A DNA stretch of 64,000 nt. Origin: Candidatus Pacearchaeota archaeon. GTDB taxonomy: Archaea > Nanobdellota > Nanobdellia > Pacearchaeales > GW2011-AR1. Below are positions 3,094 through 53,008 of the stretch, piece after piece; position 1 is the stretch's first letter, and each line of letters begins with the position of its first letter. The stretch spans positions 26,966-90,965 of the forward strand of contig SICV01000002.1 in assembly GCA_009694725.1 (NCBI GenBank). The letters are read 5' to 3'. The translations under genes and the position numbers were made by a program. The notes below the pieces were generated by a model. The model was not told the DNA's origin and made no database searches. It saw only the letters and a list, made by a program, of their open reading frames with translations.

Positions 3094-3159
3094 TGGGTTT
3101 TTTGTTTGTTTTCATATTTTGAGCAGTATATTTATATAGGGGTTTTGGTTTTGCAGAGA

Positions 3160-3645
3160 ATGGATTTTTCCTTGTTCACGTCCTCGTTTGCACAAGCGCT
3201 GTTGGTGTTTGTATTGGTATTTGCCCTTATTTTTGCGATTTTACAGAAGACACAATTACTTGGTGCGAATAAGTCTCAGATTGATGCGCTTGTTGCGGGT
3301 TCGGCTGCATTGCTTGTTTTGAGCGCAGGGTATGCCCTTGAAATTATTCAAGGATTGATTCCGTTTTTAGCAGTTTCTCTTGTGGTGATTCTAGTGTTCT
3401 TGCTTCTTGCTGGCTTCTTTTGGAAAGAGTTTGAAGTTCCGGGTTGGATGAAGACGACTGCATTTGCACTTGCATTCGTTGCGGTTGTGATTGCGGTGTT
3501 GAATCTTACGGGGGGGTATGATCGTATTGCCGGATTCTTTAATGAATGGTCTTCTCTTTGGGGTAACGTATTACTGCTTGTTATTGTGGGTATTGCCATT
3601 GCAGTTGCACTTTCTTCGGGTAAATCCGGGGGAAAGAAAGACTAA
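3160..3645 (+). CDS. 4-TM membrane protein, tandem paralog 1
   Basis: N-terminus FALIFAILQKTQLLG matches FALVFGIMQKTKILG of the next gene. TATA TATTTATATAGG lies 25 nt upstream of this ATG. Confidence 0.6.
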   Translation: MDFSLFTSSFAQALLVFVLVFALIFAILQKTQLLGANKSQIDALVAGSAALLVLSAGYALEIIQGLIPFLAVSLVVILVFLLLAGFFWKEFEVPGWMKTTAFALAFVAVVIAVLNLTGGYDRIAGFFNEWSSLWGNVLLLVIVGIAIAVALSSGKSGGKKD

Positions 3646-3686
3646 CTAAACAGAAGATATAAAAAGAGGATTCACGAAACACAACT

Positions 3687-4169
3687 ATGGATATACAATC
3701 GATTCTGATGCAATGGCAGAGCGTTGGTGTGTTTGATTATCTTCTTCCGTTCTTATTGATTTTTGCCCTCGTATTTGGGATTATGCAAAAGACTAAGATT
3801 TTGGGTGATGAAAAAGGGATTAATGTTTTGGTGGGGATTGTTGTTTCGTTACTTGCACTTCAATTAGATCTTGTACCTCGATTTTTCCAGGAAGCCTTTC
3901 CTCGCCTGGCTGTAGGTCTTGTGGTCTTATTTTGTTTGATGATTCTTATGTATATGTTTATTGATGACAAGAGTGGCCCTGGACTTAATTATGGGCTTTT
4001 AGCTGTTGGTTTTGTCATTGCGATCGTCATCTTTAGTCAATCCTTTGAGCAATTTGGCTGGAGTGGCAGCTTTGGATATGATCAGTATGTGGGTTGGATT
4101 GTAGGGGCAGTGCTTTTGATTGGAGTGATTATCGCTATTTCCTCTTCGGGTTCAGGTAAACCGAAATAA
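3687..4169 (+). CDS. 4-TM membrane protein, tandem paralog 2
   Basis: 160 aa with the same topology and N-terminal motif as 3160..3645. Upstream TATA is GATATAAAAAG. Confidence 0.65.
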   Translation: MDIQSILMQWQSVGVFDYLLPFLLIFALVFGIMQKTKILGDEKGINVLVGIVVSLLALQLDLVPRFFQEAFPRLAVGLVVLFCLMILMYMFIDDKSGPGLNYGLLAVGFVIAIVIFSQSFEQFGWSGSFGYDQYVGWIVGAVLLIGVIIAISSSGSGKPK

Positions 4170-4175
4170 TGTCCC

Positions 4176-4670
4176 ATGGTTGTTGATATTTCTGGTCTTG
4201 GGTATTTATTGCCTATTTGGTCGTTCTTGTTAGTGTTTATTATTTCATTTGCTGTAATGGTTTCTACGAAGATTGTGGGGGAGAATAAGTTTTGGTTAGT
4301 GTTTGTGTCATTTGTGCTCGCGACGTTGTTTATTACCGCCGCTGGAGCGCGAGAATATGTTGAGACTACGGCTCCCTGGGCAATTGTGATGTTGATCGTC
4401 GGATTCTTTATTTTGATGATTACTGGCTTTCTTGGCGGTAAGGCTAAGGAAATGCAAGGACCAGTTGGTATCGCATTAGTTATTGTCTTATTACTTATCT
4501 TTTTATTTGCTGCACTTAATATGTTCAGTGATCAGTTGTGGCAGTATACGCCTGACGGGTCTTCGATGAATCCATTTCTTTCGTGGGTGTATTCAGGGCC
4601 CGTTGCAGGAATGGTTATCTTATTAGCGGTGTGCGCGTTAGTTGGCTGGGTTTTGGTTAAGGTCAAGTAA
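4176..4670 (+). CDS. 4-TM membrane protein, tandem paralog 3 (more divergent)
   Basis: 164 aa with similar length and topology. Motif FAVMVSTKIVG sits at the equivalent position. Confidence 0.6.
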   Translation: MVVDISGLGYLLPIWSFLLVFIISFAVMVSTKIVGENKFWLVFVSFVLATLFITAAGAREYVETTAPWAIVMLIVGFFILMITGFLGGKAKEMQGPVGIALVIVLLLIFLFAALNMFSDQLWQYTPDGSSMNPFLSWVYSGPVAGMVILLAVCALVGWVLVKVK

Positions 4671-4712
4671 CTTTGTTTGTGTATTGTAGGTTTGATTCTT
4701 TCGCTGTTATGT

Positions 4713-4918
4713 CAAGGAACTTGATAGAAAACCACACTCTTTAGAGTGTGGTGGTTCCTTGAGCACAAGAGAATTTTTATCTGAAATTCTCTGTGCAGCA
4801 AATCGATAGATTTGCATGCATCCAAAACACGAGTGCCTGTTTCAAACCATGTCCTAAAGGACATGGTGGCACATCGTGTTTATGATCTTGTGTATGTTTT
4901 GATGAGTGGTTTAGGGAG
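4713..4918. ncRNA. candidate structured RNA / repeat element 'A' (paralog of 25491..25700)
   Basis: Four hairpins plus conserved blocks GAGCACA, GCATCCAAAACACGAGTGCC and GGTGGCACATCGT shared with element B. Stems differ by compensatory changes. Strand is unresolved. Confidence 0.4.
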
Positions 4919-6012: not shown

Positions 6013-6095
6013 AGGACAGTATGGATGGAGGGGTTTAAAAATTGTTGTGGAGCAAACCCTTTTAATGAGAGGAGTCTAGACCGTTTTAGGTGATT

Positions 6096-8360
6096 ATGTT
6101 ATTCAAAGAAAAAGCCCTCTTGTATGCAACCGAATTGGAACGAAAACAAGGTGAAACGCTCTTGTATGTGAATTATTTACAAGCGCCCTTTGTTCCCAGC
6201 CTTATCGATGGTCCCGGGGTCATGGCACGGACAATTGATGCTTTGATTCAGCATCCCGAGGTGAGTGGTCTTGTATTTGTACAACAACGACACTATGCGT
6301 ATACCCATGCACAAGTGCGTCTTTTGAGTGAAATTGCACGTTTACACACTTTTTTAACTAAACATGAAAAGATCCTTTCTCTTGAACTTTTGAATTTGTT
6401 TGGATCGGGGGAATCTCTCTTTGCCGATATGCATTACCTTATGGATTTACTTCGACAAGACCCGATGAGTTGTTATACTGAAGTGAAACGACGAGCAGTA
6501 CAGCTACGAGTACAGGTGACAAGTGGACAGGTAGCTAATCAACAAGGACTTTTAGGGTATGTGCGTTTACTTGAGCGAATACAGGGATTATTAGAGGGAA
6601 CTACCCTCATTGGGCAGGGCATTACACGAGGAATTATTTCGGGGAAAGTTTTGTATCAAGAAGTATTTCGTCCTGCCATCTTGCCGAACTTTAGTTTTAC
6701 TCGTCTTGCTGCTCAATTTCCGTTACATTCTAAACTTGTTGATCAATATACTATTCGAAGTGGAGAGGAAGAAGCAACGGTTACTTTATTACAAGTTCCC
6801 AATGATGCAAAATATATTTATCATGTATTACCTCCTGAATACCTGTTATCTGAAGAGCACCATCTTCTTTTGATGGTTGCTCGTCAAGTATTAATTGAAC
6901 ACCGACCTAAGGCCGAAGAATTCACTGATCCTGAAAAAACGCGCTCTATCTTTATACAAGTTGCACGAGATTTGTTAATGGAGTTGGGGGGACAGCGAAA
7001 CATTGCCCTTTCTTATTCAGATCTTGAACGATTAAGTCATATTCTTGTTCGACATACTATTGGATTTGGTATTTTGGAAGTGTTGCTTTGGGATCAAAAA
7101 TTGCAAGACATTGCTTTGAATGCTCCTATTGCGCAAAATCCTATTTTTGTTCGGCATGAAACGTTTGATGCCTGTGTAACCAATGTTGTGCCGAGTTATG
7201 AAGATGCAGATTCCTGGGCAGGAAAATTACGTTTGCAATCAGGAAGACCTTTGGATGAAGCAAATCCTATTTTAGATACTGATTTAGTATTCGGAGGTAT
7301 ACGGGCGAGAGTTGCTGCTATCAAGGAACCGCTTTCTCCTGCAGGCTTGGCGTATGCATTACGTCGTCATCGTGATCAACCTTGGACACTTCCTTTGTTT
7401 ATTCAGCGTAAAATGTTGAATCCCCTTGCTGCAGGTTTATTGAGTTTCTTAATCGATGGAAGTCGTACGTTACTTGTCGCGGGTACGCGGAGTTCAGGGA
7501 AAACAAGCTTATTGGGAAGTTTATTGTTAGAAGTCATGCCCCAGCATCGTATTGTGGTTGTAGAGGATACGTTAGAATTGCCCGTTGATGCTTTGCGAGA
7601 GATAGGGTATGATATATTACGTATGAAAGTTCGTTCTGCTTTGGTTACGGGAAGTACCGAGGTGGAAGCATCTGAAGGTATTCGTACTTCGTTACGTTTA
7701 GGAGATTCGGCCCTTATTGTAGGAGAAGTACGAAGTGGAGAGGCAAAAGCATTGTATGAAGCAATGCGAGTTGGAGCTCTCGCAAATGTTGTTGCAGGGA
7801 CCATTCATGGCGATTCTCCGTATGGAGTATTTGATCGTGTGGTGAATGACTTGGGTGTGCCCACGACCAGTTTTAAGGCAACAGACATCATTGTGGTTGC
7901 CAATCCGGTACGCACACCCGATGGGCTTCACTCGGTTCGTCGCATTATGAGTATTACCGAAGTACGTAAACATTGGACAAAGGATCCGGTCGCTGAAGGG
8001 GGATTTGTTGATTTAATGCGGTATAATGTTGAAACTGATCAGCTTGAACCGACACCAGAATTATTAAATGGAGATTCTGAAATTGTGAAAGCGATAGCTG
8101 GAACGGTTAAAGGATGGGCAGGGAATTGGGATGCCGTCTGGGATAATATTTTGTTACGTGCTGATATGAATCAGGCATTAGTGGGAATTGCCGAACGATT
8201 GAAAAAGCCACTGCTTCTTGAAGCTCCGTTTCACGCTTTAGCGAATCATCATTTTCATCGCATTGCTGAACAGGTACACATTGAACGAGGATTACCTGAT
8301 AGAATCCTTGTTTTTGCTCGATGGGAAGCCTGGTTAGGACAGGCTGCGCAGGCGTTTTAG
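6096..8360 (+). CDS. type II/IV secretion-family ATPase (FlaI/ArlI-PilB-like) with ~450-aa N-terminal extension
   Basis: Walker A GTRSSGKTS, Asp box/Walker B RIVVVEDTLEL, His box VVAGTIHGDSP. ATG at 6096 chosen over GTG at 6090. Confidence 0.85.
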   Translation: MLFKEKALLYATELERKQGETLLYVNYLQAPFVPSLIDGPGVMARTIDALIQHPEVSGLVFVQQRHYAYTHAQVRLLSEIARLHTFLTKHEKILSLELLNLFGSGESLFADMHYLMDLLRQDPMSCYTEVKRRAVQLRVQVTSGQVANQQGLLGYVRLLERIQGLLEGTTLIGQGITRGIISGKVLYQEVFRPAILPNFSFTRLAAQFPLHSKLVDQYTIRSGEEEATVTLLQVPNDAKYIYHVLPPEYLLSEEHHLLLMVARQVLIEHRPKAEEFTDPEKTRSIFIQVARDLLMELGGQRNIALSYSDLERLSHILVRHTIGFGILEVLLWDQKLQDIALNAPIAQNPIFVRHETFDACVTNVVPSYEDADSWAGKLRLQSGRPLDEANPILDTDLVFGGIRARVAAIKEPLSPAGLAYALRRHRDQPWTLPLFIQRKMLNPLAAGLLSFLIDGSRTLLVAGTRSSGKTSLLGSLLLEVMPQHRIVVVEDTLELPVDALREIGYDILRMKVRSALVTGSTEVEASEGIRTSLRLGDSALIVGEVRSGEAKALYEAMRVGALANVVAGTIHGDSPYGVFDRVVNDLGVPTTSFKATDIIVVANPVRTPDGLHSVRRIMSITEVRKHWTKDPVAEGGFVDLMRYNVETDQLEPTPELLNGDSEIVKAIAGTVKGWAGNWDAVWDNILLRADMNQALVGIAERLKKPLLLEAPFHALANHHFHRIAEQVHIERGLPDRILVFARWEAWLGQAAQAF

Positions 8361-8513: not shown

Positions 8514-10634
8514 TTACAAATCGCTAATAACTGTAAGGGCCAGGATAGTCAGAGTGAGGGTGGCGAGGAGCGTTGTACCTATGTAGAGAGCGAGACCGGT
8601 ACGGATGTTTTGTGCGCGTTCATATTTTTCTTTGAGTTGATCTTTTCCTGCGTCAACGGTGACAAGTGCGTTGGTGAGGATGAAAATAACTTGCAAGATA
8701 TAGATTCCAATCGCGAGTTGGATGAAATAAGGTGGAATCATTTCGCTTACTTTGAAAAGATCAGTTATGTTAAGGATACTGGAAAATCCTGACTCTTGCC
8801 CACTCGGAAGGGCATCTTTGAATGCTTCGAGTTTATTGAGAATTGCAGTGATCATGACGCTTAATCCCACTACAATTCCAGATAAGAGGGGCGCGAGGAA
8901 GGTCATATTGGAACGCATATCTGATACGACTTCTGCAAGAAGGTCGTGGAGACGTTGATTTATTTTTTCTACGTTTTTAATGTATTCAGATATTGACATC
9001 AGGGATTGGGCAGCCACCTGTAATCCCTTTTTTACTGATTCAACCAGGATACGCATGCTTGATGCAATGAGATTTGAAGGGAAGTAGGTGATTGCTCCTC
9101 GACGTTTATCAAAGAGGGCTTGTTCTAAGGACATGCCTGCTTGCTGGATATTGCTATTGACTAATGCAAAGAATTCATGTGTTTGTTGATTTTGTGTGAC
9201 TTCCGCTACTTTGGCGAATGCAATTTCTGCAGGGACATTATCGCCTAATCGATTACCGAGTTGGAAGAGGGAGGTTGTAAATTCTTGTTCTAATTGTTTT
9301 GTTTGGTCTCGGGCTTTAATGAGTTCTTTTGTTTTTGTCCGATAGACGAAATAGAGATAGAGGCCCAGTGCTGCAGGGAAACAGAGCCCCAGGAGGGTTG
9401 CAATCGGGCTAAAGGGCCCTACTTGTGCCCCGTTCACATTTTTGAAATCGAACAGTTTTTGATTTTCAAAGAAGGGAATATTTAATTCTTGGAATGTATA
9501 CTCTGCTTGAAGTCCGAATGTTTGTTGCACAAACGTGAGTTGCATGATGAAGGGGAGAAGCGTGGCACAGAGTCCAAGGAAGAGAATGGGTGAATAGGTA
9601 ATCCAGGGTTTATTTGAGGCGTATTGGGGATAGGCAGGGTTCTGTTCAAGAATGGTTGTTTCTCCATACCCTCCGGGGCGTTTGAGGAGTGCTTGATTGA
9701 CTAAATATACTACAACGAATGGAATGAGGAGGTTAAATCCGAGAAAGACATGATACCATTGTATGACGCCCCCCAACAATGTTGAAGCAAGGGGGAGCAT
9801 GGCCAATCCGAGGGTAGGGAGAATGATACCCAGCATGTAGACGTTTGTTAAGGGGGCACGCACTTCTCGACTATACTTGAGCATTTTTTCGTAGACGCCA
9901 TCAAGCATGACTTGGAGTGATTTTTCTAAAATCTGGATTCTGCGTGCTTCTGCTGGTTCGTACAGACTTGATTCAATTAAATGAAATGCTTCAATGAATT
10001 CGGGAGCATCTATTCGCCAGGAATCGAGATAGGTATCAAGTGATTGTTTGAGTGTGGAATATTTTCCGACTTCAACATCATAGATTACTTTTTGGAGTTC
10101 TTTTGCTAATGGTCCTGAGAGATTGTTTGCCGTGAAGGTGATTGCGCGTTCAAAATTTGACGTGTGTTTCATATAGATAACGGTGTAGAGTATTGCTGGA
10201 ACCATTTCTGCGCTTGCGGCTAATTTCCATTCGTGTGCAAGTCGGGCAGGGTAGGAAGAGAGGTAATAATAGAGGAAGATGCCTGCGATGATCCCGAGAG
10301 AGGCGAAGAGCACGGGGATGGCGGACGTTATGAAGAAGATCCCTGTGCTGATCAGGGTGGTGAGTAGAAATGTGCCGAGGAATCCGGTGAGGGCGAGACC
10401 GAGTGCTTGAGGTGGAGTGACATTGATGTGTGCTTCTTTGAGGGCTTGGGAGACTTTGAGTTCATCTTTCGGAGAGAGTTTGAAGGCAAGGATATTGCCC
10501 AAGGATTGGGCAAGACGTTCGTATTGCGTTAGTTCAGGAGTTACATCTTGTTTAAACTGTTTATATTCGTTTGATGTCTGACTCGTTTCGAGTCGAGCAA
10601 GGTATCGTTTGGCAAGGTCAGGAGGGGCACCCAT
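8514..10634 (-). CDS. polytopic membrane platform protein (FlaJ/PilC/TadC-like, putative)
   Basis: About 700 aa with many TM segments separated by two soluble helical blocks. Convergent with the ATPase and adjacent to the pilin genes. The start was moved from 10724 to the ATG at 10634, because the longer ORF would run through the divergent TATA and ATG of 10710..10856. Confidence 0.5.
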   Translation of the reverse strand: MGAPPDLAKRYLARLETSQTSNEYKQFKQDVTPELTQYERLAQSLGNILAFKLSPKDELKVSQALKEAHINVTPPQALGLALTGFLGTFLLTTLISTGIFFITSAIPVLFASLGIIAGIFLYYYLSSYPARLAHEWKLAASAEMVPAILYTVIYMKHTSNFERAITFTANNLSGPLAKELQKVIYDVEVGKYSTLKQSLDTYLDSWRIDAPEFIEAFHLIESSLYEPAEARRIQILEKSLQVMLDGVYEKMLKYSREVRAPLTNVYMLGIILPTLGLAMLPLASTLLGGVIQWYHVFLGFNLLIPFVVVYLVNQALLKRPGGYGETTILEQNPAYPQYASNKPWITYSPILFLGLCATLLPFIMQLTFVQQTFGLQAEYTFQELNIPFFENQKLFDFKNVNGAQVGPFSPIATLLGLCFPAALGLYLYFVYRTKTKELIKARDQTKQLEQEFTTSLFQLGNRLGDNVPAEIAFAKVAEVTQNQQTHEFFALVNSNIQQAGMSLEQALFDKRRGAITYFPSNLIASSMRILVESVKKGLQVAAQSLMSISEYIKNVEKINQRLHDLLAEVVSDMRSNMTFLAPLLSGIVVGLSVMITAILNKLEAFKDALPSGQESGFSSILNITDLFKVSEMIPPYFIQLAIGIYILQVIFILTNALVTVDAGKDQLKEKYERAQNIRTGLALYIGTTLLATLTLTILALTVISDL

Positions 10635-10709
10635 CTTTTCGTAGTATGCTCTTCCGTCGTTATAAACCTTCGGGGGAATGTATTTAAGGAAGGGGAGAAT
10701 GGAAGCATT

Positions 10710-10856
10710 ATGAAAAAAGCACAAACGCAGTCTGTGATTATTGGAGTTGTTATTGCCTTACTGGTATTAGCGTTATTTTTTGGACTTTACTTAACGCTTA
10801 GTGGTAAATTAGGGGGCGTTGTTGATACACTTCGAGGGTTTGTTCGAAAACCATGA
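10710..10856 (+). CDS. minimal pilin-like protein (class III signal peptide)
   Basis: 48 aa, below the ORF-track cutoff. MKKA|QTQSVIIGVVIALLVLALFFGLYL. TATA TATTTAAGG lies 22 nt upstream. ATGA overlap with the next gene. Confidence 0.55.
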   Translation: MKKAQTQSVIIGVVIALLVLALFFGLYLTLSGKLGGVVDTLRGFVRKP

Positions 10857-22613: not shown

Positions 22614-22650
22614 TATCTGGTGTACGCTTTGATGAGGGGGGTTCAGCAAC
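22614..22650 (+). repeat. intergenic motif copy (TATCTGGTGTACGCTTTGATGAGGGGGGTTCAGCAAC)
   Basis: 17 nt after the stop at 22597. Confidence 0.5.
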
Positions 22651-24533: not shown

Positions 24534-25235
24534 TTATTGTGCTTCCTTTACAACGCAGGCAATCTTCTTTTCCTTTGCTTCTTGGACGAGTTTTGTGACG
24601 ATTTGTTGAAGTTTATAGTGTGCTTTCTTGTATTCAGTGTCTTCTACGCTCAATGAGAATTGTCCTGAACCTAAATAATGGGCCTTGACTTCTTTTTTAG
24701 AAAATAGATTCCTAATATCTTCTACCCCATTTTCACTATGGGTCGTCAAGACCACCACTTGACGTACTTCTTTTTTATTTTCATCTTTAGTAGACATAGC
24801 AGCAATTATTTTCTCTGCCTCCTCTTTTCCAACAAAAGGTTTAATTGCTGCCGGATTTGCTTTCAAGGCGTCAAAAAAATCGGCTAAGGTTTGCTCGTTG
24901 AGTATCTTTTCAATAATTGTTTCTGGATTTTTAGTAATTGATTTAAGCATTGTACGAATGGTACGTTCTTTCTTTGCTTGTTCTTGCGCTTCTTCACGTT
25001 CTTTTCCAGTTACTCTTCGTCGTGAAAGTTCAAGATGGTCTTTTTTGACTGTAAGTATCTTACATATGATTTGTTTATTGACGAATACATATTCTCTGAG
25101 ATTACGAATTCTTCCTGCAGCAATTTCAGACATCACAATTGCGCCTTTCTCACCCGTATTTGTTTCCACATGTACTGAAGCACTTTCAATTGATTTTACA
25201 TGACAGGTAATAATGTCCCCTTGTTTGTGTATCAT
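24534..25235 (-). CDS. eif2a: translation initiation factor aIF2 alpha subunit
   Basis: N-terminal S1 domain with SEIAAGRIRNLREYV. Lies in the conserved S27e-aIF2alpha-Nop10 order. Confidence 0.8.
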   Translation of the reverse strand: MIHKQGDIITCHVKSIESASVHVETNTGEKGAIVMSEIAAGRIRNLREYVFVNKQIICKILTVKKDHLELSRRRVTGKEREEAQEQAKKERTIRTMLKSITKNPETIIEKILNEQTLADFFDALKANPAAIKPFVGKEEAEKIIAAMSTKDENKKEVRQVVVLTTHSENGVEDIRNLFSKKEVKAHYLGSGQFSLSVEDTEYKKAHYKLQQIVTKLVQEAKEKKIACVVKEAQ

Positions 25236-25399
25236 GCTTTAATGACTCCACTGACTTTGGCGTGCATGCGCGCTTTTCCGCCAGATGTTTTTGCAAGAAG
25301 ATGGTTACATTTAGCGCATTTAACGAGCATAGAAGGTCTGCTAAAAATAGTTTGATGGTTCTTACAGCGAGGACATACAGTTTTGAGGAATACACTCAT
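25232..25399 (-). CDS. rps27e: ribosomal protein S27e (eS27)
   Basis: 55-aa ORF below the track cutoff: MSVFLKTVCPRCKNHQTIFSRPSMLVKCAKCNHLLAKTSGGKARMHAKV (C4 zinc ribbon). ATGA overlap with aIF2alpha. TATA TCTTTAAAAC lies 25 nt upstream. Confidence 0.85.
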   Translation of the reverse strand: MSVFLKTVCPRCKNHQTIFSRPSMLVKCAKCNHLLAKTSGGKARMHAKVSGVIKA

Positions 25400-25490
25400 G
25401 AGAAAGGGTGGTTTGAGGGTGTTTTAAAGATTGTTATGTCTCGAACGTTTAAAACTTGCCTCATCAAGAATTTTAATTCTTGACCGCTAT

Positions 25491-25700
25491 CAAGGACCTG
25501 TGTCCTTTAGGTTTAAGGCAATGACGTTTGTGAGCACAGAGAATCTACCGATTCTCTGGTCAGGAAACTAACTGATAGTTTCCTGCATCCAAAGAACGAG
25601 TGCTTGTTCAAATCACGTACTTCAGTGCGTGGTGGCACATCGTTTTTCTGATGTGCCCTCTTGAACATTCGCTTGTGAATTTTTATATGAGGGGCTTATA
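25491..25700. ncRNA. candidate structured RNA / repeat element 'B' (paralog of 4713..4918)
   Basis: Shares GAGCACAGAGAAT..ATTCTCTG, GCATCCAAAGAACGAGTGC and GGTGGCACATCGT with element A. TATA-like boxes occur on both flanks (CGTTTAAAAC on +, CATATAAAAAT on -). Confidence 0.4.
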
Positions 25701-37145: not shown

Positions 37146-37269
37146 AGCCTCCAGGGGGAATCGAACCCCCGACCCTTAGTTTTTCTGCGTGTTCACCGTT
37201 TGGGTGAAGCGTGAGGGGTGAAACCCCTACGCTACAAAACTAATGCTCTGCCAACTGAGCTATGGAGGC
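37146..37269 (-). tRNA. tRNA-Thr (anticodon TGT) with 51-nt intron at 37/38
   Basis: Hand-folded. Acceptor GCCTCCA/TGGAGGC, D arm GCTC-AGTTGGCA-GAGC, anticodon stem TTAGT/ACTAA with loop TTTGTA[intron]A, T arm GGGGG-TTCGATT-CCCCC. Confidence 0.85.
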
Positions 37270-37694: not shown

Positions 37695-37829
37695 ATGAAG
37701 AAATACTTACTATTAGTTGAGGATGAGCGCATATGGGAGCAGTTTAAGAAAGTGATTAGCCAGGATTTGAATACAGAGATTTTGCAGTTAATTCGCGAGA
37801 AGGTGGGGGTATCACATGGGAAAAAATAG
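37695..37829 (+). CDS. 44-aa protein, possibly RHH-type regulator
   Basis: MKKYLLLVEDERIWEQFKKVISQDLNTEILQLIREKVGVSHGKK. Preceded by GGAGGAGAGAGG. Overlaps the next ORF by 14 nt. Confidence 0.4.
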   Translation: MKKYLLLVEDERIWEQFKKVISQDLNTEILQLIREKVGVSHGKK

Positions 37830-39639
37830 GGGGCAGACGGTCACGCTCTTTGTTATCATTGCGTTGGTCTTTGTGGGTGGTATTGCTGGATATTTTGCGG
37901 TGCAGAAGGGATTGTTAGGTACTCAAGACACTGAATCATTTAGTGCGGTGTATCAGTATTATGATCAGTGTGTACAACAAGCCCTTCAGGAAGGGGTTGA
38001 GCTTGCAGGATTGCAAGGGGGATGGATATATGTCCCGGATTATATTGAAGGAAGTACGCGGTATCCAAGTGGATCGCAGCTTTCTTTCTTAGGACAAGGC
38101 ATTCCCTATTGGTTATATGTTTCTGGAAATGGACAATTAGTTGAGCAGGTACCGACTAAAACGCAGATGGAACAAGGTATTGCGCGCTATATCAAAGAGG
38201 AAGTTGCTTTGTGTGATTTTGGTCCTTTATACGTACAAGAGTATGAAATTGGATCAACGGTTGACACGGTGACGGTCAGGGTTGGTGAAGGAACGGTTGA
38301 TGCTGTGGTAAAGGGAGAACTTTTGGTTGCGCGCGATGGACAGGAAGCACGAGTTTCTTCTCGTAGTTATTCAGAAGCAAGTCAGTTAGGTGCACTGTAT
38401 CTTCAAGCACTTGCCTGGTATCAGTCTGAAAAAGAAAGTGCTCTTTTGGAAAATTATACTCGTGATGTGTTGGTTAATTATGCTCCGGTTGATGGGGTTG
38501 AAGTGAAGTGTGGTCCGCAGGTATGGGAAACACGAAAGGTAGTGGATACACTTCGTGAAGGAATAAGTGCTAATCTGGGGGCATTGTCTTCCGAACGAAC
38601 AGGGTATTTCAAAGTAGTTGGAGAAGGAACGGCTCCGGTTCGTTTTATGAGTGATTCTTCCTGGCCAGGGCGAGTTGAAATTTATGGGGAGGGCGTTTCT
38701 CAGGAAGTGATGCTTGCACAGCCCATTGGTACACAACAGGGATTAGGGGCACTTGGCTTTTGTTATGTGCCGTATCATTTTGTGTATGATATTGTTCATC
38801 CAGTGCTAGTACAATTTGGAGAAGGAGATGGTGATCTTTTTCAATTTCCGTTGATTCTTGTTATTGATAAAAACCTTCCTCGTCAGGGATTGAGTGGAGA
38901 GATTGAGCAAGGGCCTTCTCAGGATTTGTGTTTACAGCTAACTGAGGAACTTTCTATTCGTGTTTCAGATGTTGCTTTAGAACCTGTCCTCAATGTAACT
39001 GTTTCTTATTCTTGTTTTGATCAGGAGTGTCGGGTTGGAGAAGGGAATGGCGTTGTGCAGGGTAAGGCACCAGGATGTGTGAATGGACAGCTCGTTGTTC
39101 GTGCTCCCGGTTATCAGGAGAAATCACTTTTGTTTTCTTCTACTGAGGAAGAAGAAGCAGATATTATTCTTGATAAAACGTATCCTGTTCGAGTAGCATT
39201 GTTTGCGGGGGGGAAGGAAGTTGGGGAGACAGGGATTGTTTCGTTCCACGGTACTGCACAGTCTACTGCAGTTGTTCCTTCTCAAACCGAGGTTTCTTTG
39301 GTTGAAGGTTTGTATAATGTGAGTGTATTGGTGTATGGGAATACGAGTATTCAGCTTGAAGCTTCAACAACTCAGCAGTGTGTGGATGTACCTATTGGAG
39401 GGATCGGGGGACTCTTTGGGGGAACAAAGGAGCAGTGCTTTAGTGTGACTATTCCTGCAAGTACGGTTGAGTATGCATTATTGGGTGGAGGAGAGAGTAC
39501 CGTGTATTTGTTCCCTGCAGATTTAGAAGATGGACAAGTGCGTATTGATATCCCTGCTCTTCAGAAACCAACCTCTTTGACTCAGTTACAAACCTTTTAT
39601 GATCAATTTACTACTCAATCTGCGATGGTGACTCCATGA
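37816..39639 (+). CDS. 607-aa surface protein with pilin-type class III signal
   Basis: MGKNRG|QTVTLFVIIALVFVGGIAGYF. No recognisable domain in the remainder. ATGA overlap with the giant gene. Confidence 0.7.
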   Translation: MGKNRGQTVTLFVIIALVFVGGIAGYFAVQKGLLGTQDTESFSAVYQYYDQCVQQALQEGVELAGLQGGWIYVPDYIEGSTRYPSGSQLSFLGQGIPYWLYVSGNGQLVEQVPTKTQMEQGIARYIKEEVALCDFGPLYVQEYEIGSTVDTVTVRVGEGTVDAVVKGELLVARDGQEARVSSRSYSEASQLGALYLQALAWYQSEKESALLENYTRDVLVNYAPVDGVEVKCGPQVWETRKVVDTLREGISANLGALSSERTGYFKVVGEGTAPVRFMSDSSWPGRVEIYGEGVSQEVMLAQPIGTQQGLGALGFCYVPYHFVYDIVHPVLVQFGEGDGDLFQFPLILVIDKNLPRQGLSGEIEQGPSQDLCLQLTEELSIRVSDVALEPVLNVTVSYSCFDQECRVGEGNGVVQGKAPGCVNGQLVVRAPGYQEKSLLFSSTEEEEADIILDKTYPVRVALFAGGKEVGETGIVSFHGTAQSTAVVPSQTEVSLVEGLYNVSVLVYGNTSIQLEASTTQQCVDVPIGGIGGLFGGTKEQCFSVTIPASTVEYALLGGGESTVYLFPADLEDGQVRIDIPALQKPTSLTQLQTFYDQFTTQSAMVTP

Positions 39640-42600
39640 GATATTGGCTTTTTCTTTTTGCTTGTCTGTTTGTGTTGCCCTCTGTGTATGCTGGATCTGC
39701 GTCATTTGTTACGAATCAGTATACGCAGCCTAGTTTCAATACGTATTATGGGGGGAGTATTGGCACGTATTGGCCTATTTTGGATGAGAAAGAGCAATGT
39801 TTGGCTCGGCAAGATGTCTTGATGCAGGTTGCTCCTGCAGGCTGTCAACCGTCGGTTGTGCGGAGTGATCTTCTTGCTGAACAAAATGTGCCCGTGTTCT
39901 GTCAATTGAATGCGTTACAGATTAATCCGTTAGTGACTATTAAGGAACTTGAAAGCATACGATTCACCGGGAATTATCCGAAAGAAGTGAGCAGTGTCGG
40001 GTTCCACCCTGCTCGTGCAGCATTACGAACACGAGACCAATTATTGGGAGATCCGTTACTGAATAATGTAGGGTATGTCGTGATTGTATTAAAGAAACAA
40101 CCGAAAGAATCAGAGTTGCCCAGTTCAGTGAAGCTGATGCTTTCTGCAAACATCAAATATGATGCGGGGAATGCACGCGGGGTAGGAAAATCTGAATTTT
40201 TATTGACTGAACAGAGCGATGAGGAATGGACGCAAGCACAAAAAGAGGGGAGACAGGGATTTTTCAATGGTAAGTATCAGGTTCGACTTGAAGATGCAGA
40301 TGTGCGCGGAGCGACAGTCGGTATTTATTCAGGAGTACGTAAACTTGGAGAAGCACAGGTTGAGCAAGGGAAACAATCTTCTGAAATCTTTTTACCCGGT
40401 AGTTATTGTCGTGCAGGCGTACGTGCTGAATTGCTGGGCTATGAGATTGGTAAAGAACGAGCAACCTTACGTATTACTGGAACATACGGGACTGAAACTG
40501 TTGATGTGTACCAAGGGAGTAGTTTCTTACAGGGGCAGTGTCGCTTGACCCGGTTAGTGATTGATAATCGTACGGGGAGAACGGGAGAAGTGGAGATTAA
40601 ATGTGCGAGTGCTAAAGCGTTCAAATTGAAATTATTGCCGAATGCAGGGGTGTATGAGGTCTTTACTCTTGATGATGGTTCGTTGATTACTCCTTCTCAA
40701 ACAGGGGAGATTGATTTCGGACAACGAACTCCTGCTTATACCTCAGGGAGATTTCGTCTGAGCAGCATTGGAGCATTGCAACATTATAATCAAACAGCTC
40801 AAGGACAGGGATGGGTGAATCTCTCTTTGACTGGTTCTGGAGAACAGGTTCTCTGGTATCGAGCTTTGTTGGTTGGTTTGCAAGAGCATCTGAAACAACA
40901 GAAAACACAGAATACTCCCACTCCGAAGGTATTACGTGAAAAGAGTTATGCTTCAGATATTGAAGCAAACTTTAGCGCCACCATTGCTTCATATCGTGCG
41001 GTTGCGCAGCAGTATCCGGGAGAGAAAGGAACTGACTTGGAAGGTATTGAAACGTATGGGGAGCAAGCCTTGTACCGTGCGGCACAGCTTGCAGGTTCAT
41101 ATGGAAAACAAAGTACACAAGCGACGTTATTACAAGAGTTACTGACTACGTACCCCGACTCTGTATCCTTTATTCGTTATCAACAAGAATTGACTCAGTT
41201 AAGTGAGATTGATGGGTCTGAATCAAGTGCCGTACTTTCTCTGCAAAATGTGTATCGTACGATTACGCTGACGAGCTTGATTCGTCCTGCTCAAACTGCC
41301 TCCGTTCGATTACAGATTAATAATGAGCCGGTGATTTTACACGTTGGGGAAAATTGGACACGAGATTCTGGGTTTATTCGATTGTCTCGTTTAGAAGCAG
41401 ACCGGGTTTTACTTGAAACAAATTGTGCGTTTAATGTGCGTCGTGCTGAAACTTCCTTTGTTCAAGTAGAAGAACGTTCAGGAAGGGGAGGGGTACGAAC
41501 GGTAACAATGGGTGAAAATGATGATGGGACGATTTGTGGGCGGGGAGTACGTATTGCTGAAATTGATAGTGAGAAACTTGCACGTATTCGATTGACGACG
41601 AGTGCTGAACGTACTGAGACGACTACGAATGTGTCTGTGCAGATAGGGATTGAAAAACGTGCAATTCAATTATCTCCCGCGAAAACTGCGGAACGTATTG
41701 GAAACTTGAATAAAAGCATTCAGAAATGGGATCAATTGAACAAAAATGTGGGGAAGGTTGTTACGACCATGAAAGCAGCCTGTTTTGCTACGGCTGGGGT
41801 GTTGACGGTGAAGAATTTCTTTGCTGGTTTAAGCGGGAAAGGATTCGCGCGGAAAGAAGCGATGAACGGAGCGAATGGGTGGACTGAATTCTGTCGGAAA
41901 CAGGTTGGTGCTGGAACAGATGGTTTGCGGACGTTTGATCAGTGTTATCTCAAGTATGCTCCCGATATCGATGCAGATGTAGCGAAGCGAGATGCTGCGG
42001 TGAAACAAGTAAATGCACGTATTACGGCCATTCAAAAACAGGACGGGGTGAAGACTTCGGAAGGGTTCTTTGGTGATTCTGTGAATACTGATGAAGCTGC
42101 GAAGCGGTATCGTACGGAGTTACAAAATACCTATGGCGATACATTAAAGGGTGTTTCTCTTGAACATGCAAGTTACACTGAATTACGTGAATTAGATATG
42201 AATCTCTTACTCCAACAGCAGGGAGGAGGGAGTGAGCAATTACAGAAAGATGCGCGTGTCAAATTAGAAGGTATTCAGAAGAGTGCGGCTGGTCAAGCTC
42301 TTCTTGCTCAACAGCTTAAAGCGGATGCAGAAGTTGCACAACGGGGAGATATTCGAGGGTTGGTTGTTGCTCCAAATTCTCAATTACCTCGACAAGCAGC
42401 GATTATTTCTCAAGCTGCGGTGAATACGACTGGAGCACTGTATTATGCAGGAGACTTCAAGTATTATACAAAAGTTATTGCAACAGGTTCGTCTGATGCT
42501 CAAGGTAATACCTATGGTTCTGATACCTATGGATTAGGACTTGCTAAGCAATCTGACGGCACGTATGTTGTACAAGAAGTCTTTCAATCAGATGGCACTC

Positions 42601-45600
42601 CCTTACCTGCTGGTGAACGAGAACGCTTTATTACGCAGTATAATGTTGGCTCCTTCAAAGATAGTGCCTCTTCGAATTGGGAGAAGTACAAGTGGGATAA
42701 GCCAGTTATCCAGTATTATGAGACTGATCCGTATAAAGGGTTGCCTGCATTAGTGCCAGTTGATCCTGATCATGGGTGGTATGCAGCAACGAAACAAACC
42801 TTGCCTGCCTTTGGAGGGCTTGCAGGGTGGGAGAGTTCAGGCAGAGTAGCGAGCTTTTACTTATGTAATGTGGGAGAGAATCGAAAACCTGATGTGTTCA
42901 ATGGGTATAATGATGATAGTTGTACGTTGATTAATCTTGCTTCTGGCCAAGCAGCTGATAAAGTGCCCGGTGTTTCAGAAACACGTGCACAACAGTTAGT
43001 GAAACAAGCTCGTGAAGCATTAGAAGAAGCTGCTCGGGCGCATAAGCAGGGAGCAAAGAGCCTACGACTGCAAGGAAGTCAGCATAAAACGCCTTATGCA
43101 GTTGAGAAACCTGCTGTTTCGGTGCCGGGTGTGCAATGTCAAGACTTTATGAGTCCAACCGAATGTAATTTGTTGTTTAATGTGTGTGATCCGGTGATTT
43201 GCCCGGCGAGTCGGTGTGATTTTGGAGGGAAATATCCTGTCCAGGATGTTATCCAATCAGGTATTATTGGAAGTACGTTGTTGTGTATGCCTAATTTCCC
43301 TGAAGTGAAGATACCGGTGTGTTTGAGCGGTATTCATGCAGGGATTGATGCGTATACGAAGATTTTGCAAGCGCATCGGGATTGTTTACAGGAAAGTTTG
43401 ACATCGGGACGAATGGTGGGCATTTGTGATCAAATTTATTCGATTTATAGCTGTGAATTCTTCTGGCGGCAACTTAGTCCGATTGCTAATTTAGTGGTAC
43501 CTAAATTATTTGAACAAGCTCAAGGGCAGGGAGCACGAGGAGGGGGAGAATATTTGACGGTTCAGAATGCTTGGACAAACACAAAGCAAAGTACGGATTA
43601 TTTGACTACTGTATATGGGGTGAATGCGTTTAAAGCATTCCAGGCACGAAGTACCGAGGAAGTTGGTGGGGAAGTGTGTAAAGGGTTTATATCTGGTACC
43701 TTCCCTGGGAGTTTCAAAAGTTTAGTACAACCCGATAGTCCAGTGCAATTTAATGCTTTTTTCAGCACTATTAAGTATACGGATGCAACGGTACCGGCGA
43801 CCTCCCAGTATAAGGTGTTTTATCATATTTATGCGGGGAAGGATCAGGGCATTAGTTATCGTGTGTTTTTGAAGAATCCCCCTGCAACGAGTTATTATGC
43901 TTCTCAGCCCACTATTCAAGTGAGCTCGGGTTTCATTGGGAAAGGATTGTTTAAAGATGAGACCAAAGACTTCACGGCTCCGGAAGGATACCAAGAATTA
44001 TGTGTCGTCATTAATGGGGATGAACGGTGCGGATTCAAACAAGTGTCTACTTCCTTTGCGGTGAATCAATTGCGGGATGCAGTGGTGGCAGATGAATTGA
44101 AGAATACCAATATTGCGAGTGAACAAGCGTGTATTTCAGGTACGGTGAGTGCGGCTGCTTTGTTGAATCCTAATTTGAATCAAATGGCTGATGAAGCTGC
44201 TGATCCGGCGATCTATCGCCGCGGGATCATTCGAGTGTGTTCGAGTGGGAACCCAGGTCAAACAACTGATCCGAGTCGGTTTGCGGATGTGGGATATTGT
44301 GGGGATATGAAATTGCGGTGTTGGTTAGATCGACAAAGCGTGCAGAATGCTATCACTGATGTCAATAAAGGGGTTAAGAATGAAACCTATCAGTGGTTTG
44401 CGAATCAAACTCTTGCCAATCTTCAGAAAGATGGGAAAGTATTAGGTGCTGATGCGGGCTTTTCGGAATTGACGCGTCTTGAGGGTGTGGTGAGTGGCCT
44501 TGAGAATTATCAAGGGCAGAAATCGAGGTTATCTGCTGATCAGTCTACTCGTCTGGGATTGTTATTCCTTGAATTTGGACAGACGAAAGAAGCGTTGTTC
44601 TTTAATCATCATCGTGCACGTTTGGGGTGGTTAGTGGGACGAGCACAGGAAGTCTTGTTTAAACATACGTTTGCGGCACGGGCGGACGATACTAGACAGA
44701 CTGGGCAATTGGATAAGGGGATATTGGTACGTGAGAATGGGCGTGTGTGGGAAATTCGTTTTGATCGATCGCAACCGTGGGAGTCTTTTGATTCATTCTT
44801 GTCTAGTAACGATTATGCTCAACAATTAAGTGCATTCCAGAGAGCATTGGTTGATTATCTTCAGATTACTGATCCTGAAGAAGCACATATTACGTTACTT
44901 GGAGGTTCGGGCAGGGCGCAAGGAGTTACGGTAACTTCGACAAATGAGACTGAACAAGCATATTACTATATCCCCTTTGGTGATTCGCCGAGTTCTTCTG
45001 ATGTGGGGACGAATGGTAATCCTGCGGTTGCTGCTCAAGATGCTGCTGGTGCGGGTTCTTCTGGAACGGCGGGAGTTGGTGGCGCTCAGGGAGTTACACC
45101 CGTTATCTCAGTTTCTCGTATTATTTGTACGTTAGCTACGACGAGTGAACTTGATGCTCCTGCGGTTCATTTTGGCTTTAATACGGTGATCAGTAAATGG
45201 GAATGGTCTTTCGACAAAAAGAATTGGAATGCATTGACTGAAATATATGGAATACACGAAGACACCGACCAATCTTTTCAATTGTCTGGGAATGCTTCTT
45301 TAGTTGCTCAAGCATTGCAGTCTACGTCTTCCTTTGCTGTTGGAAAAATTGATTTACAGAAGTATGGGGCGACGGGAGAATGTCTTACTGCTTCGACACC
45401 TGTTGTAGCCGGAACAACTTCTCCTTCTGGAATAGCTGCGGGTTCTTCTCTTTCTGGAGAGTTATTTTTACATTTCACTTCTCAAGGAGTATGGAAGGTT
45501 TCTTTGCGAAGTGCAACTGGCATAGCTTATTCTCTTGACGCTTTCAATGAGCTTTTCTTGGGTTCCGCAGGTCTTTCTCTTGAATATCTTCCCCTTCTTG

Positions 45601-52917: not shown

Positions 52918-53008
52918 GCCCTCGTAGCTCAGCTTGGATAGAGCAGCGGACTTCTATTACCTCATAGGGGGAATCCGCAGGTCGCAGGTTCAAATCCTGT
53001 CGGGGGCG
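52918..53008 (+). tRNA. tRNA-Arg (anticodon TCT) with 16-nt intron at 37/38
   Basis: Acceptor GCCCTCG/CGGGGGC, D arm GCTC..GAGC, anticodon stem GCGGA/TCCGC with loop CTTCTA[TTACCTCATAGGGGGA]A, T arm GCAGG-TTCAAAT-CCTGT. TATA CGTTTATAGAG lies 25 nt upstream. Confidence 0.85.

Follow-up and report, generated by a model that had tools for sequence, protein, structure and literature searches.

The window analysed here is a 64,000-nt stretch of contig SICV01000002.1 and derives from a Pacearchaeota-type DPANN archaeon with intron-containing tRNA genes. It carries two structured elements on the + strand, termed A and B. Element A (4711..4886, intact long form, 176 nt) lies within a 395-nt gap between convergent genes, and element B (25438..25652, long form with a damaged left end, 215 nt) is antisense to both neighbouring genes. 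The RecJ-like, aIF2-alpha, S15 and S27e genes around B had their best relatives in Pacearchaeota and Nanoarchaeota assemblies. A and B are real, homologous and strongly structured, well beyond chance. As described below, they are very probably copies of a non-autonomous, palindrome-associated transposon of the IS200/IS605 type, similar to a MITE (miniature inverted-repeat transposable element), which has spread through Pacearchaeota-like DPANN archaea.

The homology of A and B, first noticed by eye, was borne out by a pairwise alignment, in which a GAGCACA(A)GAGAAT hairpin was common to both and two further hairpins were replaced. A conserved block of approximately 30 nt with one indel (GCATCCAAA..ACGAGTGC.TG) occurred in the window only at A and B, and no shuffle gave two matches. 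The 13-mer GGTGGCACATCGT was also found in the window only at A and B; however, 18 of 100 shuffles likewise gave two matches when two mismatches were allowed, so that only the block was clearly above chance. The proposed long-range pairing of ACACGAGTGCC with GGCAC(A)TCGTGT was present in A, and compensating changes were present in B. Compared with shuffled sequences, the folding of A and B gave z = -10.4 and -5.4, respectively. DNA and RNA folds of A both gave z values of about -10 to -12, and the two DNA strands of A were equally stable, as its stems are perfect Watson-Crick pairs. The strand was therefore assigned from B and from the family of homologous copies described below.

The limits of both elements were revised. 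Element A, originally placed at 4713-4918, was corrected to 4709/4711-4886 by alignment with 29 copies from other genomes and by the covariance-model match (4709-4886, 123 bits, E = 1e-26). Element B, originally placed at 25491-25700, was corrected to 25436/25438-25652 by the family alignment, in which its closest copy is L139; the covariance-model match for B, which covers its right two-thirds with 72 bits, spans 25557-25652 only, as the model misaligns the left end of B. The 'tails' at 4887..4918 (A) and 25653-25700 (B) were found to be flanking DNA, since the family stops at TGAT and the sequence beyond it is unrelated in more than 100 copies. In addition, the 'CAAGGA' block of B (25491-) had been equated with CAAGGAAC of A, to which it is not homologous; it sits in a 50-nt insertion at 25462-25511. 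The true left end of B in the family alignment is ATGTCTCGAACGTT at 25436, as in copy L139.

A and B are not a pair specific to the window, as both turned out to belong to a family of more than 100 copies. Scanning one genome per species for the conserved block yielded 32 matches in metagenome-assembled genomes (MAGs) of Pacearchaeota, Woesearchaeota and Nanoarchaeota, with up to eight in one MAG, together with 11 chance bacterial matches. Thirty-one copies were aligned to build a covariance model, which recovered copies missed by the pattern; with scan and model combined, at least nine copies were present in one genome, and five lay inside 10 kb at one locus. In the window, the model search found A and B only. 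A looser pattern applied to metagenome contigs, together with the model, gave 108 unique insertion sites, among which the 105 that start and end in AT were used for statistics. A strict pattern search of viral contigs gave 0 matches, and the 119 matches of a loose two-block pattern on viral contigs were all due to chance and uninformative.

The copies have exact ends: 103 of the 108 start with ATGTC and 102 end with TGAT, and the flanks are unrelated between copies. Many contigs terminate inside a copy, as is expected of a repeat. The elements measure 83-223 nt, net lengths range from 83 to 222 nt with a mode of 120 (the common short form adds 120 nt), and even the longest copies are too short for a transposase gene. 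Being long forms, A and B have two additional hairpins between GAGCA and GCATCC, a module present only in A, B, L130, L134, L139, L143, L161, L162 and a few metagenome copies. The left hairpin is missing from minimal forms (83-97 nt). Most copies are intergenic, as would be expected if disruptive insertions are selected against.

The consensus structure comprises four helices: an outer helix (CAAGGAAC/GTTCCTTG) around a left hairpin, the left hairpin itself, a long helix (ATCCAAAANACGAGYGCC / GGCRC(A)TCGTNTTTTTGAT), and a right hairpin enclosed by the long helix. The original prediction of conserved blocks combined with stems that are replaced but still pair proved correct, as 97% of the alignment cells were paired compared with approximately 40% when the partners were slid, 20 of 40 pairs had changed on both sides, and none of 500 shuffles reached the covariation score. 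Compensatory changes were seen in 5/7 pairs of the outer helix, 7/8 of the left hairpin and 6/9 of the right hairpin; the T-run after the last helix is one strand of a helix with compensatory changes as well. Simple recent duplication without covariation, against which the original prediction had asked to check, is thus at odds with the homologs. The two subterminal hairpins are alike, both following (A)AAA/CAAA-CC-N5-6-TTT(T)A(A)-N5-6-GG(T). In some copies (L153) both have the same sequence, and the stems differ freely between genomes. Inverted terminal repeats are absent: throughout the more than 100 copies, AT..CAA is all that the 5' end ATGTCAAGGAAC has in common with the reverse-complemented 3' end ATCAAAAA(N)ACGATG. 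The 31-copy alignment contained 20 G-T cells versus 8 A-C cells, favouring the top strand shown here, and covariance-model scores were 100-147 bits on the forward strand and 16-34 on the reverse strand.

The flanks of the 105 unique sites revealed a target preference. On the left side, T was present at -2 in 100/105 and at -1 in 80/105 sites, followed by AT, and the preference on the right flank was much weaker. Together with the TGAT ends, these statistics indicate that the element sits 3' of T-T-A-T and itself ends in T-G-A-T. In IS608, the transposase binds subterminal hairpins on one strand (PMC3201880, PMC5934647). The left cleavage site of IS608 (CL, TTAC) is the flanking target, 19 nt 5' of the hairpin foot, and is matched by the left guide (GL, AAAG), and the right cleavage site (CR, TCAA) is the element end and is matched by the right guide (GR, GAAT); each guide is the 4 nt 5' of a hairpin foot and pairs through G1:C2, G2:C1 and G4:C4, with the A at G3 going into the protein (PMC3201880, PMC5934647). 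In the present family, the left guide AAAA occurred with a TTAT flank in 57/69 copies and the right guide CAAA with a TGAT end in 86/96 copies. All positions obey the IS608 rule, including the A found at position 3 of both guide and cleavage site, and the distance from CL to the hairpin foot has a mode of 20 nt. Furthermore, left guides starting with C had a flanking G at the paired position in 4/6 cases versus 6/81 otherwise (Fisher p = 0.0013), a shift expected if the guide sets the target.

These features can be located in both window copies, all on the + strand. In A, the target tetranucleotide TTAT at 4707..4710, assigned from the left-flank statistics, is host DNA and not part of the element. 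The left end (4713..4761, helices 1 and 2) has, besides the outer helix CAAGGAAC/GTTCCTTG, an AAAA guide at 4728-4731 and a left subterminal hairpin at 4732-4751, CCACACTC-TTTA-GAGTGTGG. It is followed by the long-form module at 4763..4817, an insertion relative to the 120-nt short form that consists of the hairpins GCACAAGAGAAT..ATTCTCTGTGC and GCAAATC-GATA-GATTTGC. The right end (4820..4886, helices 3 and 4) is built from a long helix (ATCCAAAACACGAGTGCC / GGCAC(A)TCGTGTTTATGAT), a CAAA guide at 4843-4846, a right subterminal hairpin at 4847-4866 (CCATGTCC-TAAA-GGACATGG) and, at 4883-4886, the TGAT cleavage site. A looks like an intact copy.

In B, the flanking TTAT (25434..25437) agrees with the left-flank consensus of the family. 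The 50-nt insertion, recognised by alignment with L139 and the family, occupies the loop of the left hairpin and separates its halves, ACTTGCCT (25454-25461) and AGGCAATG (25516-25523). The right end (25588..25652) retains the long helix, the CAAA guide at 25609-25612, the hairpin TCACGTAC-TTCA-GTGCGTGG at 25613-25632 and, at 25649-25652, the TGAT cleavage site. G-T wobble pairs occur in this hairpin solely on the + strand; on the - strand the same positions would be A-C mismatches. Being damaged by the insertion in the left hairpin, B is probably dead, i.e., no longer mobile. Relatives that keep the RecJ-S27e-aIF2alpha gene order had no element at the site of B in the contigs carrying RecJ/DHH homologues, and no further copies were gained there. 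The insertion is made up of two mini-hairpins, CAAGAAT-TTTA-ATTCTTG and AAGGAC-CTGT-GTCCTT, and includes the 'CAAGGA' block. Similar TCAAG..CTTGA hairpin modules were also observed inside copy L138:7034-7257.

Eight copies were located inside genes. When each was deleted in silico with one AT kept, the two half-genes became one open frame, and seven of the restored proteins matched a known protein family. Pfam matches spanned the junction in six of them: tRNA_bind, MtN3/PQ-loop (SemiSWEET), HepT, NikR_C, His_Phos_1 and a DDE transposase. The seventh restored gene encodes 3-dehydroquinate (DHQ) synthase, in which the junction falls at residue 36, upstream of the Pfam DHQ_synthase match; its restored N-terminus aligned without gaps to intact Pacearchaeota orthologues. 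Two of the eight copies, L146 (in the tRNA_bind gene) and L126 (in the NikR_C gene), are antisense to the interrupted gene, and the in-gene copies contain stop codons in the host frame. These antisense copies and stops exclude a spliced intron and a translated in-frame insert, and the boundaries are fixed to the base. An in-frame insertion like that of the Rickettsia palindromic elements was rejected for the host-frame stops and because no more than 4 of roughly 10 size classes are divisible by three. As a separate observation, the copy at L137:6214-6327 supplies an in-frame ATG and a frame through its right end, so that DHQ synthase is annotated as a protein of 323 aa (P0241) whose first ~28 residues are element-encoded. 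Starts supplied in this way could lead to wrongly annotated N-termini in these MAGs. At L145:4765-4886, a copy interrupts an ISC1217/DDE-type transposase gene near its 3' end, one mobile element having been hit by another.

The orientation of the copies is biased. At the 15 loci with at least two copies, all 22 counted co-located pairs had the same orientation, with one opposite pair (L145) lost to deduplication. The top strand was the G-rich strand in 68/92 copies (24 opposite; p = 5e-6) and in 36/45 loci with strong skew, and both window copies are on the + strand. For IS200/IS605 elements, the lagging-strand template is known to be used in both excision and insertion, and they show an orientation bias of this kind in genomes (PMC5027513). 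In the present family, the G-rich strand would be that template. In the window (1-64000), the GC skew of the + strand was +0.01 to +0.35 in every 2-kb bin, whatever the gene orientation, and the AT skew was negative (+ strand T-rich) in all but three 2-kb bins. This unusually strong asymmetry suggests that the whole window may lie on one replichore.

A candidate transposase was found beside two copies. An IS608 TnpA sequence, used as a probe for Y1 transposases, matched nothing in the first 32 loci and gave one match in the metagenome loci (~0.58 Mb), which was confirmed by Pfam (Y1_Tnp, E = 1.6e-21). On contig L211, this gene sits between two copies, shares their orientation and belongs to an IS200-like element of 667 bp with tnpA only (element, L211:3169-3835; tnpA, 3350-3817). 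The element has the flank TTAA, the left guide AAAT, the right guide GAAA, and the end TCAT 10 nt after the right hairpin. Its hairpins, CTACCAGCC-TTTA-GGCTGGAG upstream of the gene and CCGCACCC-TTTA-GGGTGTCGG at the 3' end, have the same design as those of the family, and their stems resemble the left and right hairpins of the copies on that contig. Approximately 1000 homologues of the protein were detected, mostly on contigs of about 1 kb; those inspected on longer contigs had archaeal genes such as RFC, aIF2-gamma, RIO1 and SRP54 as neighbours.

Comparison of insertion sites among the IS200-like relatives L276-L282 defined the ends of these elements and showed that the right guide and the end covary: the end, 10 nt away from the hairpin foot, is TCAT where the guide is GAAA and TCAC where it is GAAG. 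The left guide AAAT occurs with the flank TTAA. Hence, the IS200-like elements of this lineage obey the IS608 guide/cleavage code with a covariation of their own. The code and the hairpins together imply that the lineage has active IS200-type elements, whose transposase would recognise hairpins like those of A and B. We infer that an L211-type transposase mobilises the miniature elements.

The family has been shown to be mobile in many copies, with exact ends and a defined target site, covarying hairpins, guides complementary to the cleavage sites, a biased orientation and a linked Y1 transposase that has ends of the same kind. All this fits a model in which the element would move as single-stranded DNA by 'peel-and-paste'. 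A Y1 (HUH) transposase acting in trans would bind both subterminal hairpins of the top strand. Guiding would be done by the 4 nt 5' of each hairpin foot, AAAA on the left pairing with the flanking TTAT and CAAA on the right with the terminal TGAT. The top strand would be cut after TTAT and after TGAT and leave as a circle with a predicted right-end/left-end junction in which ..CGTNTTTTTGAT is joined to GTCAAGGAAC.. (..TTTTGAT joined to GTCAAGG..), and the donor would be resealed exactly. The circle would then reinsert 3' of another TTAT in exposed single-stranded DNA, most likely the lagging-strand template.

Several observations weigh against an IS200/IS605-type mechanism. No autonomous element with the family's own ends (ATGTC..., GAGCATCC..., the long ACGAGYGCC/GGCRCATCGT helix, and TTAT/TGAT) was found, and the linked L211 element uses other tetranucleotides (TTAA/TCAT) and has neither the outer helix nor the long helix. 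The L211 gene was the single Y1 gene in ~0.89 Mb of copy-flanking DNA, and none was present in the window, where Pfam analysis of 30 proteins gave no transposase or nuclease partner nearby. A BLAST search of joined flanks against all fetched loci returned no empty-site allele of the same strain; a search with the restored DHQ synthase protein retrieved only the interrupted allele and orthologues of 59% identity or less. AT at both junctions also fits a 2-bp target duplication, which yields the same sequence. From the hairpin foot to the right cleavage site the distance is 16 nt, compared with 10 nt in IS608 and the DPANN IS200-like elements, and the site is paired in the long helix, which the IS608 model does not require. 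The replication direction was taken from GC skew only, and the skew in 8-kb flanks is confounded by gene orientation. Finally, the most sequence-conserved parts are not the transposase-type hairpins. They are GAGCATCC, TGTCACAAA, the outer left helix and the helix ACGAGYGCC/GGCRC(A)TCGT, which extends as far as the right cleavage site; none of these parts occurs in the IS200-like elements of the lineage. The conserved core may serve a further function, either as a top-strand RNA (an omega-RNA-like guide or a mobile terminator/regulator) or in a second DNA-level recognition, but we consider this unlikely. An omega-RNA-like candidate could have a 3' end continuing into the flank and act for an RNA-guided nuclease encoded elsewhere; alternatively, the core could provide extra protein recognition or control access to the cleavage site. 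No credible TnpB-like open reading frame (ORF) was found in the ~0.89 Mb of copy flanks by a crude screen for products of 300-650 aa with a C-terminal CxxC..CxxC.

Of the two readings given in the original prediction, namely a functional family of structured RNAs and a structured mobile element, the second is favoured by the exact ends, unrelated flanks, in-gene copies and target tetranucleotide. As stand-alone structured noncoding RNA genes, the copies would each have their own promoter, and the single-stranded blocks would be functional sites. Very strong covariation, thermodynamic stability, the excess of G-U over A-C cells on the + strand, and a core sequence better conserved than the hairpin stems would suit such genes, as would the T-run after the last helix and the position of A in the 395-nt gap between convergent genes. 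However, the covarying stems correspond to the subterminal hairpins of IS200/IS605-type single-strand transposition, and the T-run is a helix strand with compensatory changes. The upstream flanks are unrelated between copies and contain no conserved promoter, protein-coding genes are interrupted in both orientations, and at least nine copies occur in one genome, five within 10 kb, with assemblies breaking at copies. An Rfam match to a known family, which had been named as the alternative outcome, was not obtained for A or B even at E up to 10: with gathering and permissive thresholds, the best matches over A and B had E >= 0.44, far under the gathering scores, and only tRNAs passed in the window. 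Considering also the specific target tetranucleotide with its matching guide/cleavage code and the close relatives that are devoid of B at the same site, an RNA gene is highly improbable. If the copies were instead introns of the archaeal bulge-helix-bulge or self-splicing type, removed from host transcripts, the in-gene insertions would be harmless. At least seven copies are indeed found within genes that are otherwise intact and belong to small genomes, their exact removal gives back the frame, and the host lineage has intron-containing tRNAs. The antisense orientation of two of the eight in-gene copies (L146 and L126) is incompatible with this, most copies are intergenic, and a group I or II intron would have to be far larger than the element. 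The ends do not form a bulge-helix-bulge (two 3-nt bulges and a 4-bp helix), as the consensus contains just one bulged A besides small internal loops, and the exon-side pairing partners would be unrelated flanks. An intron is scarcely credible and the least probable of the explanations considered.

Two other kinds of DNA element share some of these properties. A classical cut-and-paste MITE, moved as double-stranded DNA by a DDE transposase with duplication of a 2-bp AT target, would account for AT at both junctions in 105/108 copies, and one copy-bearing genome (L145) does have a DDE (ISC1217/IS4-like) transposase gene. That gene is itself interrupted by a copy, however, and the element ends share no inverted terminal repeat beyond AT..CAA. 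Cut-and-paste transposition would also leave unexplained the asymmetric target preference (T at -2 of the left flank in 95% of sites, weaker on the right flank), the strong orientation bias and the strand-specific structure, and would give no role to the guide-cleavage complementarity, including the change of left-guide A to C with flank T to G; we regard a DDE-driven MITE as very unlikely. The same dinucleotide at both junctions and the absence of inverted terminal repeats are also what a non-autonomous IS607-type or other serine-recombinase element with a crossover at the shared AT would show. AT is self-reverse-complementary and could not set the observed orientation, covarying hairpins and a guide code are unexplained by such a crossover, and the only transposase found beside copies is a Y1 enzyme, which makes a serine recombinase extremely improbable. 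What A and B represent is most probably a new family within a known class of mobile elements and no novel structured RNA gene.

Some further features of the window were noted. The recurrent intergenic motif CTTGTGNATNTTTNNATGAGNGG occurs three times (0.16 expected), namely at 4887-4909, 25672-25694 and 22617-22639. It lies outside the elements: directly after A, 20 nt after B, and once without an element upstream of tRNA-Arg. Given its likeness to the 3' terminus of the element (..GTG(C/T)TTTTGAT), it may be what is left of a right end, or else a site preferred for landing. The gene for ribosomal protein S27e (MSVFLKTVCPRCKNHQ..., about 25232-25399, -) lies between aIF2-alpha and B, and the left end of B is only a few bases from its TATA-like box CTTTAAAAC, indicating insertion just upstream of the S27e promoter. 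Upstream of A, three consecutive paralogous genes for small membrane proteins of 179, 160 and 164 aa, devoid of Pfam matches, were found at 3106-4670 (+); the trio adjoins a type IV pilus/archaellum-like cluster with a T2SSE ATPase (6090-8360) and a T2SSF-like gene (8514-10724). Two tRNA genes have introns at the canonical position, one of 53 nt (37146-37269, -), missed by ARAGORN, and one of 18 nt (52918-53008, +), misread by it. A 2196-aa ORF at 39636-46226 (+) is preceded by a 607-aa ORF at 37816-39639 (+), which had no Pfam match.

The identification of this family spares DPANN annotation a tempting but false 'new structured RNA family', and illustrates that covariation alone cannot distinguish RNA genes from the ends of single-strand DNA transposons. 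The covariance model and the boundary rules (GTC directly after TTAT at the start, and TGAT as the last four bases) can be used for repeat masking, for repairing gene calls, and for explaining contig breaks in Pacearchaeota; DHQ synthase, a tRNA-binding protein, SemiSWEET and HepT are examples of genes split by the element. Very small, symbiont-type archaeal genomes carry an expanding single-strand transposon that still inactivates genes, and the guide/cleavage pairing rule of Helicobacter IS608 extends, with a covariation of its own, to distant elements of archaea.

The family was compared with known systems. It resembles the omega-RNA of TnpB/IscB in that a structured RNA could be read from the right end, ending at the right cleavage site and with the flank as guide (PMC8612924, PMC10055086). 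In contrast to omega-RNA loci, the crude screen found no tnpB-like gene adjoining copies or in the ~0.89 Mb of flanks, there was no Rfam match, and the conserved right-end segment is only ~70 nt. Repetitive extragenic palindromes and bacterial interspersed mosaic elements (REP/BIME) are also high-copy palindromic repeats, and are thought to be spread by a single Y1 HUH enzyme, the REP-associated tyrosine transposase (RAYT), acting in trans on hairpins with a conserved adjacent tetranucleotide (PMC2817692, PMC8266576). REPs are single hairpins of ~20-40 nt, often in inverted pairs flanking the RAYT gene, whereas the present elements are two-ended units of ~120 nt, their left and right ends being distinct, with a defined target, and the linked Y1 gene on L211 looks like an ordinary IS200-type gene and not a domesticated RAYT.

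The likeness to IS608/IS200 extends to the layout of the ends. Both have subterminal hairpins on one active strand (PMC3201880, PMC5934647, PMC5027513), a left cleavage site that is the flanking tetranucleotide ~19-20 nt 5' of the foot, a right cleavage site that is the last four bases, and 4-nt guides under the same position rule; a biased orientation, in the present family probably toward one replication strand, would be a further likeness. Unlike IS608, the family has neither tnpA nor tnpB and uses TTAT/TGAT instead of TTAC/TCAA; its right cleavage site begins 16 nt from the foot and not 10, and forms a long Watson-Crick helix with an upstream A-run.

The palindrome-associated transposable elements (PATEs) of haloarchaea (Haloquadratum walsbyi) are non-autonomous derivatives of IS605-type transposons (PMC3119063). 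The family differs from them in its DPANN/Pacearchaeota host, in having no sequence relation to the haloarchaeal families, in its extra, highly conserved helices (the outer left helix and the 16-bp helix containing the right cleavage site), and in that no full-length parent with the same ends was found. In Haloquadratum, PATE palindromes are targeted by other small repeats (PMC3119063), which may be compared with the insertion in the left hairpin of B. PATEs and the present elements alike have no inverted terminal repeats and no target duplication (the sequence of the family also fits a 2-bp AT duplication). Both have near-terminal palindromes that resemble each other and those of the IS200/IS605-type transposons of the lineage, as well as a short targeting oligonucleotide on the 5' side, and both are too short for a transposase and outnumber the autonomous elements. 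Judged from sequence-level traits, in all of which that could be compared the family agrees with them, the haloarchaeal PATEs appear to be the closest described class.

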